DNA of 63,533 nt, filler included, from Atractiella rhizophila (Eukaryota): NCBI GenBank assembly GCA_021432655.1. It is 28 parts of 28 records of this genome, joined end to end, with 100 filler letters (N's around TTAATTAATTAA, not from the genome) between each part and the next. Parts side by side here need not be neighbours in the genome. Positions count along the whole stretch, not along the records: positions 32,272 to 34,441 come from MU272744.1; 27 more parts are not named here. One strand, given 5' to 3'. Each line of letters opens with the position of its first letter. Position 1 is the stretch's first letter. The position numbers and the translations under genes are program-made. The notes under the pieces are model-generated. The model was not told where the DNA came from, searched no databases, and saw only the letters and a program-made list of their open reading frames with translations. Below, in pieces: positions 32,272 to 35,863 of the stretch.

Positions 32272-33129
32272 AGGATCAAAATGGCCCTATTCGGTTACAA
32301 GACCTTGCGATACGCTCAGGCGTGGACGACTTGCTAACAAATAAAGATCTGTTTGAGGCATTTAGGAATCACGAGAAAGTCATATATGACGACCGTACAG
32401 AGCTGTGGAGGTATAAGGTATGTCTCACCCTTTCCTTTCGCCTACGTCCAGTCCACCTTCTGTCCGTTTGTTTCGGTTGAAGTCCCACTGACGATGGGAG
32501 CGTAGCCAGACCATCATCTTCCCACTGCCAATGCACTTCTCCACGTTTTACGAACGACAAACTCCCAAGGTGGTCAGAGCGTGAAGGTTCTGAAAGACTC
32601 CAACAAAGAAGTGCGTCAACAACCTCACATCCTCCTTCCGAAATGCCTACCTTTAACTGATGGCATGACCAATAGGTGGGACCCATGATTGAGTCCCTGG
32701 AGAAGCAGGGCAAAGTAATCGTCATCCGCAATCCCAACAATGGGCAAATGAAGAACGTATTCCTCGACGAGGTTGCTGACAAGTTACAGCAGGGATTGTT
32801 GGACTTGAAAGTGGACAAAGTTGACGAAGGTTTGGTTTTGCCACCTCTCCTTGTCTTCACAACGCTCACCACCCTCTTAACTAGAATTCAAAGAAGTTTA
32901 TCGCTCCTTACCACTCCCCGCCACTGTCGACTTGGCTGCTGAGCTGGCGGCGGAGGGCATCGTTTCTGTCAGACCGCTTGATGGGGGGAGGAAGAAGAGT
33001 GGCGGGGCGAAGAAGAAGGGAGGAAAGGACAAGAGGTATAACAGGAGAGTTAGGATCACTAATACCCATTTAAAGAACGTAGAGGGTATCGACTTGAGCA
33101 AGGATTTCGTGCCTGAGCCGCAAAAGTGA
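32272..33129 (+). CDS. TFA2: Transcription initiation factor TFIIE beta subunit, 5'-truncated
   Basis: NHEKVIYDDRTELWRYK/PDH, GQSVKVLKDS, IESLEKQGKVIVIR, VDEEFKEVY and C-terminal basic region plus RITNTHL. Confidence 0.92.
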
Positions 33130-33543
33130 CAGTTTTTCGTTCCTTCGTGGCCGTGTGATATACTTCATGCGCTCACGTTTAATATCGATTCAAGTTACGA
33201 GTTCACCTGTGGAAAAACGTGTATAGACCAATTGGTTATGCATTACAAATGCGTTACAAAGAATGACACTACCCTTGCATGCAAATCTTCAATTCGTCAA
33301 GAAAAGAAAAGGTCAAGTAATGCCAGTGGTCATCAAGCCTACACAACTCAATGTGTGGCTCGTTTGAACCAAGTAATAAAAGCGACAACAACAGAAGTCG
33401 TAAATCGTACCACAGTCAAGTGGTCGATTAGTGGTCATTGACATGCAACGAAGCGTGAAAAGTAACGAAGACGAAAATGCTAAGACGACGACCCAAAACA
33501 GAAGAACGACGACTGCTAATGACGATGGAGGAGAGGAAGGGTT

Positions 33544-34441
33544 CTACGATTGCTCACGAGCGACGGACCGAGCAAGACGTCGTACGACGACATCCTCAAA
33601 GAGACCACGATCAGCTTGGATGGTGGACCTCTTCACACGGTGAGAAGTCGGGTGGGCCCTCTTGGAGTGAGAAGCGACGGAACGAGCGTGTCGCTTCTTG
33701 ATCATCATCCTCGCCTTCACTGCCTTCCTAGCCGCATTACCACAAGTGCTCGACATCGCATCGACGGCCTTCGAGGCCTCAGAGGCGGAACAGTTATCGC
33801 TCAAGCATTGGGCAAAGGCACCAGTAAAGGAAGAGGTAGAGCAGAAGCAGTTAGCATCTCCATCGAGAGAGCACGATGGGGCAAGGGATCCAGCTTCCGA
33901 GAATTTGATCGAGAGACACATGTTGGCACAGTCGGAGACGCCAGAGAGAGTAATGGGGCCTTCAACATCGGTGCAGTCTCCTTCATCGTCAGAAGAATCA
34001 TTGCCTGTAGAGTTGTCTCCAGAGTCAGTCGAAGTTTGGGATCCTCCGTTGTTGTCGGAGCCAGTGGAGACGGAAGAGTCGCCGCCGTTGGAATTATCGC
34101 CATTGTTGGATGAAGATCCAGAAGACGATCCAGATGAAGCAGCATTAATGACAGCGGGTCCAGGAACGGTGTTTTGGTCGATGTTTCCGTTCTGATAAGC
34201 ACCCGGGAATTTGACAGTCTCGATGTTGTTCAAGTTAATAGCTCCAGTCCCATCCTGAACGTCAAGTTGGGCACAGAAGGGATACTGATTGGAAGAGACA
34301 ATGACTTTTAGCAACCAGGAAGAAGGACAGAAGAAGACATACATATTGATCTTGTCCTCCCTCGGCACCACTGCTCTGGCCAAAGGCGATAAGTTCGTAC
34401 CTCATAAGATATTTTCCGTTCTTCAGGCCGGCGGGAATGGC
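33544..34441 (-). CDS. AA9-like lytic polysaccharide monooxygenase C-terminus + Ser/Gly/Asp linker + CFEM domain, 5'-truncated
   Basis: Splicing a 58-nt intron (34285..34342) gives IPAGLKNGKYLMRYELIAFGQSSGAEGGQDQYYPFCAQLDV...VKFPGAY. An 8-Cys CFEM follows: DCANMCL...CSLDGDANCFC...FAQCLSDNC...C (about 33740..33950). Confidence 0.85.
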
Positions 34442-34541: not shown

Positions 34542-35863
34542 AGGATTACGAACGCGCCAGCGTTAAGATTGCTACTAGTTTGGCCTTCTTGAATGGGGGA
34601 CAAAACTTCATCTTCTCAGCTGCGTTGACCGGGATCATGTGGCTTGCAGCAAAGGGAATTGCAGCTGGCACAATGACAGTCGGGGATCTGGTTATGGTCA
34701 ACCAACTCTTGTTCCAACTTTCTGTCCCTCTCAATTTCCTTGGTTGGTCCCTGTTTCCTAACCGAGCTCAGACACTTGTGCTGATGATTTACACTCGAAT
34801 AAAGGAACTGTTTACCGCGAACTGCGTCAATCCCTTATCGACATGGGTACCCTCTTCTCTCTTCAAAGCGTGCGACAAACTATCGCCAACTCACCTACAG
34901 CCACACCGCTCGCCTTCTCTGGCGGCAAAATTGAATTTCGCAATGTCTCCTTCGCCTACCATCCCGACCGCCCAATTTTCAAACACGTCTCCTTTATTAT
35001 TCCGGCTGGGAAGAAAGTCGCGATTGTCGGGCCGTCAGGATGCGGAAAGAGCACCGTGTTCCGTCTCTTGTTCAGGTTCTACGATCCCTCAAACGGCCAG
35101 ATTCTGGTGGATGGACAGGATTTGAAAGATGTGACACTCGAGAGTCTCAGGGAAACAATCGGTGTCGTACCACAAGACACGCCGCTCTTCAATTCGGACA
35201 TCATGCATAATATTCGATATGGACGCTTGTCCGCAAATGATGAGGAAGTCAAGGAAGCAGCCAGACTAGCAAGTGTGTCGGATACGATTGAAAGATTGCC
35301 TGAGAAGTGGGCGACGAAGGTGGGGGAGAGAGGACTCATGATCTCAGGAGGGGAGAAGCAACGATTGGCCGTCGCCAGGTTGCTGTTGAAAGACTCGCCG
35401 ATTCTATTCTTCGACGAAGCTGTACGGCACCTTCTTCACCATTCTTTTGCAAACCTGACGAGTATGGCAGACGAGCGCTCTAGACACGTATACTGAAGAA
35501 GCGCTCATGTCCAATATCCGACAAACGCTCCTCCGAAAGAACAGGACAAGCATTTTTGTTGCTCATCGTCTTCGGACGATCGCAGATGCTGGTTAGCTTT
35601 CCGCCTCAAAACTTCTTTGCTTCTGACCACGACTTGTCATTATGGCAGATATCATTATCGTCCTCAAGGATGGCTTTGTAGCCGAGCAAGGATCGCATCA
35701 AGAGCTGATGCTTCGGGAAGGTGGGGTGTATAGGGATATGTGGGAGAATCAGAGCAATGGCAAAAGTGCGAACCTCCCTGAGGAGGAGCAGGAGACAGCA
35801 GAGATCACAGTGGAAGATGGGAAACGAGAGAAGCGGGAGGAAAACGTTGTATCATCATCGTGA
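34542..35863 (+). CDS. ATM1: Mitochondrial ABC half-transporter Atm1 (ABCB7), 5'-truncated
   Basis: [38 protein letters not shown], Walker [46 protein letters not shown]. Confidence 0.96.

Follow-up and report, generated by a model that had tools for sequence, protein, structure and literature searches.

The window, that is, the whole 63,533 nt stretch of Atractiella rhizophila DNA analyzed here, consists of about 28 contigs of ~2.2 kb each, joined by N-TTAATTAATTAA-N spacers. The contig at window positions 32272-34441 (G000:C1565) carries, on its minus strand, a gene that joins an AA9-type LPMO domain to a CFEM domain, and whose 5′ side runs off the contig end. Its features are:

34343..34441, minus strand: last 33 codons of exon 3 (full-model residues 176-208), the rest of the exon lying beyond the contig end
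34379..34381, minus strand: Gly196, at the AA9 stacking-His position by alignment
34282..34363, minus strand: ExxQDQxY loop (E202-x-x-Q205-D206-Q207-Y208-Y209), split by the intron; E, Q, D, Q, and Y in 42 of 42 alignment rows
34342-34285, minus strand: 58-nt GT-AG intron (GTATGT..CAG), phase 0, skipped by contigs of four of four RNA or probable-RNA runs
33544..34284, minus strand: exon 4, with the AA9 domain end, linker, CFEM, basic tail, and stop
34156..34284, minus strand: AA9 domain end with a short LC segment, 10 aa from GAY to PGP, no aromatic
33931..34155, minus strand: 75-aa Ser/Gly/Asp/Asn linker from PGP to the first CFEM Cys, no aromatic, low pLDDT
33973-33975, minus strand: Cys312, unpaired, in the linker
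33742..33948, minus strand: CFEM domain (PF05730), eight Cys (C327-C389)
33856-33858, minus strand: Asp351, the Asp of DANCFC, aligned to Csa2 Asp80
33547..33741, minus strand: 65-aa basic tail with 18 K/R, 4 H, 4 D/E, and four dibasic sites

On the plus strand of the same contig, positions 32272-33129 hold the 3′ part of a TFA2 (TFIIE beta) winged-helix gene (PF18121, E 1.7e-5, just under the cut-off), which ends at 33129 and is convergent with the AA9-CFEM gene: a housekeeping neighbour with no evident link to it. The next contig in the window has the 3′ part of an ABC half-transporter gene (34542-35863, plus strand; ABC_tran E 1.7e-32), presumably resembling mitochondrial Atm1; it is not a true neighbour of the AA9-CFEM gene.

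The original prediction, made from the window alone, placed a 58-nt intron in the fused frame and put the N-terminus off the contig. The intron is present and is spliced out in the RNA, giving the junction QDQY/YPFCAQL. The gene is indeed cut by the contig end, but its N-terminus is not lost: the missing 5′ part (signal peptide, His1, and His2; exons 1-3) is found on another contig, G000:C330 (L001 1170-1821), and includes both a signal-like leader and His1. This contig is 99.0% identical to the window contig across 1596 nt. Because of this identity, the silent coding differences, and the same downstream gene, the C330 copy is taken to be the other allele or a haplotig; a separate paralogue is ruled out on the same grounds. 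G000:C1565 is thus an alternate allele of a longer contig, and small contigs of the assembly may therefore be haplotigs. The full model has four exons, three GT-AG introns (64, 63, and 58 nt), and 454 codons with no internal stop. The protein begins with a signal peptide followed by His1; after these come the second brace His, the axial Tyr, the linker, the 8-Cys CFEM, and the basic tail.

At least half of the gene's sampled words are present in 18 runs from 15 studies, of 24 runs listed; the two on record as RNA are root metatranscriptomes. All three introns are skipped at the predicted sites by contigs in the four RNA or probable-RNA runs examined, and the RNA joints rule out alternative candidate splice sites. 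A single contig (X11, record 6) covers L001 1000 to 2565, taking in His1 and the whole CFEM; the RNA-run contigs carry neither strand nor expression level. Comparison of the run contigs with each other and with both alleles gives 34 coding variants, of which 29 are silent, vs. 24% expected. Spliced RNA contigs span both domains, which are therefore in one gene; with the AA9 profile match described below, this excludes two cases named beforehand as refuting the prediction, separate genes and the lack of an AA9 hit. An artefact or chance fusion is ruled out by the single open frame, the spliced RNA contigs across both domains, and recurrence in many genera. The AA9-CFEM fusion is confirmed as real.

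The AA9 profile (PF03443) gives a weak match to the last exon of the window (E 0.016), since exon 4 has no more than the final part of the domain, and matches the full allelic copy on C330 at E 1.8e-16 (65.1 bits, cut-off 27.8). A search of the genome gave four AA9 matches, of which this was the best. By hydropathy and alignment, a 19-residue hydrophobic leader is followed by His20, the mature His1; His119 (in WPHPKGH) is the second brace His, and this residue and the axial Tyr209 align to the WPH and QFY of HiLPMO9B; Gln207 is the second-sphere Gln. One secreted chain with an AA9-fold copper site and a CFEM, as had been proposed, agrees with the signal-like N-terminus, His1, His2, and axial Tyr, and with the single spliced RNA contig.

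The residue counts relied on here are columns of a 42-row alignment of relatives, regular-expression counts having missed or mis-cut some rows. AA9 was matched in all 42 (E ≤ 0.01). His1 is found in 40 rows, with two gaps, and His2 in 41, the gap rows at these positions being truncated entries; the axial Tyr and the second-sphere Gln are in all 42. The surroundings of this conserved site differ from those of canonical AA9s in four respects. First, the second-sphere His that stacks at the active site is replaced: the column has Gly in 33 rows, Asp in five, Asn in two, His in one, and a gap in one, so that it is lost in 40 of the 41 rows having a residue there. In the A. rhizophila protein the His of AA9 “ALH” is replaced (ELIAFG), a change that was not among the original observations. 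The only family member with His at this position is P0037, from Phakopsora. Second, the Pro position of HxxGP is His in 37 of 41 rows and Asn or Thr otherwise; in the A. rhizophila protein this gives an extra His123, four residues past His2. The His at this HxxG-H position may occupy the space of the lost stacking His. Third, the acidic loop is two residues longer than in canonical AA9s, with Glu204, Gln207, and Asp208 (P0063 numbering) invariant in the 42 rows. Fourth, the LC loop is about 10 residues shorter: its GAY-PGP segment is 7-12 aa, with an aromatic in one of 42 rows, vs. 20-21 aa with Tyr212 (TaAA9A numbering) in canonical AA9s, and the substrate-stacking Tyr is deleted.

In most AA9s this LC-loop surface Tyr stacks on the substrate (PMC10166503, PMC5094447). 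Its loss cannot exclude cellulose as a substrate, because the cellulose-active NcAA9F is also without it (PMC5094447). The protein could then be an ordinary cellulose or hemicellulose LPMO, with the CFEM merely substituting for a CBM1. The AA9 match above the Pfam cut-off (111.6 bits for the Polyporus homologue P0063), the cellulose-active AA9s that are the nearest solved structures, and the white-rot genera among the carriers are all in keeping with this. We nevertheless consider it distinctly improbable, since the four linked departures on the catalytic face are common to the group, while the two other AA9 loci of the genome keep the canonical LH...QFY motif; in addition, a GH7 search of the genome, whose own controls gave no match either, found none. 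L002 and L003 (G000:C370:23172-28948) are tandem canonical AA9 genes with short exons and LH...QFY, inside a duplicated stretch.

AA9s conserve the stacking His strongly, it plays an important part in their oxygen chemistry, and its loss may impair catalysis (PMC11079946); the protein may therefore be a poor oxidase or a mere copper binder. Because it lacks this second-sphere His, it is not classed as a typical AA9. The fold was examined in a model of P0063, which is 48% identical to the A. rhizophila protein over 401 columns (mean pLDDT 87, pTM 0.64, linker disordered). The best structural match is to the AA9 7ntl (Z 25.0, rmsd 2.1, 196 residues aligned), followed by 5nns (Z 24.2; Foldseek E 1.4e-14), and His25 of the model aligns to residue 1 of AA9 structures; Z is 9.1 against AA16 and 8.6 against X325 (6ibh).

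These comparisons bear on a second possibility, a non-catalytic or oxidase-only copper protein resembling X325/Bim1 or AA16, serving at the cell surface as a copper store, shuttle, or H2O2 source with the CFEM as a tether. The X325 proteins use Asp as a copper ligand. Here the stacking His is present in one of 41 rows, an extra His is found in 37 of 41, and the acidic residues E204 and D208 are in all 42. There is also a precedent in the LPMO-like X325/Bim1 proteins, which are without LPMO activity (PMC10166503). Set against this, the AA9 Z score is far above those for X325 and AA16, the second-sphere Gln and axial Tyr are kept throughout, and the C-terminal acidic residues could equally shape substrate binding. 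A copper protein of this kind is unlikely.

As originally described, the CFEM domain has eight Cys and the DANCFC Asp, and PF05730 matches the last exon at E 1.6e-9 (38.1 bits, cut-off 22). The linker is of the Ser/Gly/Asp (and Asn) composition described, but it is 75 aa long rather than roughly 60, and has one extra Cys. A regular-expression count gave an extra Cys in no more than 14 of 44 rows, and one of the 14 has a broken CFEM. No GPI-type or membrane anchor is evident by hydropathy, since the basic C-terminal tail is not hydrophobic. In both fold searches with a model of the last exon, the Candida hemophore Csa2 came out on top, although weakly (Z 7.3, rmsd 4.5, 82 aligned; Foldseek E 1.2); against the C-terminal domain of the P0063 model it has Z 8.4.

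An N-terminal loop and Tyr36 keep the heme in place in Csa2 (PMC13586796). No Tyr36-like residue was found 22-30 residues before the first CFEM Cys in any of 33 proteins (an offset inferred from chain numbering), and an aromatic counterpart of the Csa2 Tyr-Trp before Asp80 is absent from all 33 rows. The Asp itself varies: of 33 rows with a letter in this column, 19 have Asp, 10 Gln, two Lys, and two Glu, with Asp kept in the A. rhizophila protein and in most non-rust carriers (Polyporales and Auriculariales). It was cautioned at the outset that many CFEMs have this Asp without proven heme binding, and this holds: the Asp is the usual CFEM consensus, conserved in most CFEMs, and hemin binding could not be shown for three Aspergillus CFEMs (PMC4183699). 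The protein is not classed as a hemophore.

A two-metal scavenger, in which the CFEM binds ferric heme or iron, either for nutrition or as a sink, and the AA9 domain acts independently with no electron transfer between them, would account for the alignment of Asp351 to Csa2 Asp80, for Csa2 as the top structural match, and for retention of the Asp in the query, most Polyporales, and Auriculariales; CFEM-like domains also head fungal ferric reductases (PMC9635878). The 14 of 33 rows that have Gln, Lys, or Glu in place of the Asp, the lack of the Tyr36-like handle residue and of a Tyr or Trp before the Asp, and the Aspergillus results (PMC4183699) argue against it, and make it quite unlikely.

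It was also suggested originally that the protein might be a self-reducing LPMO, the CFEM heme passing electrons to copper in the same chain in place of a CDH cytochrome. The Asp is present, and the flexible linker would let the domains meet. An exon-wise and therefore weak search of the genome gave no CDH-cytochrome match above the cut-off; of the two sub-threshold matches, the best (23.5 bits) is to a probably membrane-linked domain. However, CFEM hemophores bind ferric and not ferrous heme (PMC9635878), the wrong state for an electron donor, which must hold ferrous heme; an Asp-ligated CFEM would release its heme on reduction. There is no flavin or other electron source in the chain, the CFEM is optional or repeated among relatives, its Asp is found in 19 of 33 rows, and the heme-site aromatics are absent. 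The heme-to-copper model is accordingly judged highly improbable. At L005 1468-2300 (G000:C1178, with a copy on C296), the sub-threshold CDH-cytochrome or DOMON-like domain is followed by a Gly/Ser linker and hydrophobic segments; this could be a cytochrome linked to the membrane, and so might supply electrons at the surface.

Proteins of the same catalytic type are found in six rust genera, Puccinia (four species), Melampsora, Cronartium, Phakopsora, Hemileia, and Austropuccinia, with several paralogues; in the Auriculariales Exidia, Auricularia, and another member of this order; in Polyporus, Lentinus, Daedaleopsis, and Cerioporus; and in Phenoliferia. Among the matches listed in the protein and representative searches, two of which scored only 8000 candidates, there is no named ascomycete. 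By Pfam, 31 of the 42 aligned relatives have a CFEM and 11 have none, while some rust proteins have two or three copies. A tree built from 41 catalytic domains has a clade of 27 rows (support 96/88), including the named rusts and three unnamed rows, with several paralogue groups; the A. rhizophila protein falls outside it. Six rust rows that have no CFEM form a clade whose sister rows, from Cronartium and Melampsora, do have one (100/98). The outgroup is one canonical AA9 on a very long branch, too few to test monophyly. P0019, P0071, and P0073 have the same catalytic type, a linker, a single Cys, and an Arg/His-rich tail with no CFEM, which suggests that a tail of this sort either gained a CFEM by insertion or has lost one. 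In P0075 (Phenoliferia) the gene model is fused to a WD40 protein, and the entry has a hydrophobic helix at its end instead of a CFEM.

The explanation we prefer, which we judge to have an even chance of being right, is that this is a secreted copper enzyme of a distinct basidiomycete AA9 subfamily, held at the surface by its CFEM and acting, at the fungal wall or host interface, on some glycan that is not crystalline cellulose. It takes gene structure, residues, and fold as observed, and infers activity, substrate, and the role of the CFEM by analogy. Signal cleavage would expose His1, and copper would bind; an external reductant would prime the enzyme, with H2O2 or O2 driving oxidation as in other LPMOs. 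The rebuilt face would be directed away from crystalline cellulose and towards a glycan of the fungal wall or of the wall/host interface. The CFEM, an optional and duplicable module, would together with the basic tail keep the enzyme on the surface of the fungus or attached to a partner, a role corresponding to that of CBM1 in other AA9s, and is probably not an electron source; tethering or targeting is a plausible function for it. Two precedents are consistent with this: the Cryptococcus AA9 Cel1 is needed for the fungus's own wall and is inactive on common substrates (PMC10166503), and CFEM mutants share wall defects (PMC4183699). LPMO tails with a free Cys or a basic composition, which dimerise or bind copper, lend further support by analogy. 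Against a non-cellulose target, several carriers are wood-decay fungi, and there are CBM1 genes in this genome. On G000:C92, C1277, C134, and C525 there are genes in which two or three CBM1 matches lie near one another.

A bolder proposal would make this a new class of AA9-fold copper protein in which the HxxG-H His and acidic loop replace the stacking His and support a new substrate or reaction at the surface, with the Asp-bearing CFEMs also holding ferric heme, and which has expanded in rusts. It must be rated a rather low probability, but if it is true, a single chain would combine copper-based oxidation with the handling of iron.

Precomputed Pfam annotation already shows both domains, and databases automatically label these proteins as cellulose monooxygenases. 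In the literature searched no description of an AA9-CFEM fusion or subfamily was found, including in the available parts of PMC4469406, PMC10282164, PMC10154629, PMC8615602, PMC7990074, and 10.1101/2021.08.18.456800, although the Lenfant 2017 survey of AA9 modules may list the group under another name; CFEM has no occurrences as an LPMO module in two reviews of LPMO modularity. The ESM Atlas, which is silent on rarity below 50 members, has only generic AA9 and AA9-CBM1 clusters. The protein is a real, recurrent, and uncharacterized AA9 variant. AA9s are among the best-studied fungal oxidases, and a subfamily without the stacking His and with rebuilt loops, retained across two basidiomycete subphyla, is a natural experiment on the second coordination sphere. 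Rust fungi are biotrophs; the group has multiplied in rusts, and is therefore a well-delimited candidate to explain the retention of AA9 genes in biotrophs. The harmless homologues from wood-decay fungi make the subfamily testable.

Among known systems, the catalytic domain is closest to the AA9 LPMOs, with HiLPMO9B (5NNS) and McLPMO9F (7NTL) as the nearest solved structures: it shares their fold (Z 24-25), the His1/His2 brace with a WPH-type second His, Gln-x-Tyr, two cysteine pairs, and secretion. It differs in having no stacking His, in His, Asn, or Thr for the Pro of HxxGP, in the longer acidic loop and the LC loop 10 residues shorter and without its Tyr, and in a CFEM instead of CBM1. From X325/Bim1 it is set apart by the lack of the compact X325 fold (6ibh Z 8.6 vs. 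AA9 Z 25.0) and, its C-terminus not being hydrophobic, of a GPI anchor. With the Candida hemophores Csa2, Rbt5, and Pga7 it has in common the 8-Cys CFEM fold and, in the A. rhizophila protein, Asp at the iron-ligand position; unlike them it has no Tyr36-like handle residue, no Tyr-Trp before the Asp, an Asp that is variable in relatives, and no GPI-type tail, and its CFEM is fused behind an enzyme. Cryptococcus neoformans Cel1, compared by description, is likewise a basidiomycete AA9 with an altered binding face and a long C-terminal extension (PMC10166503), but it keeps the cellulose-binding Tyr positions and adds aromatics, and its tail is described as disordered, with no CFEM mentioned in the part of that paper available. 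The low-complexity linker with a single free Cys, and the basic, His-containing tail, resemble the tails of CoAA9A and PcoAA14A. LPMOs with such tails dimerise by disulfide, and the AA14 tail binds copper (PMC10990093; 10.1101/2025.11.04.686606); unlike in those proteins, a folded CFEM here stands between the Cys and the basic tail.
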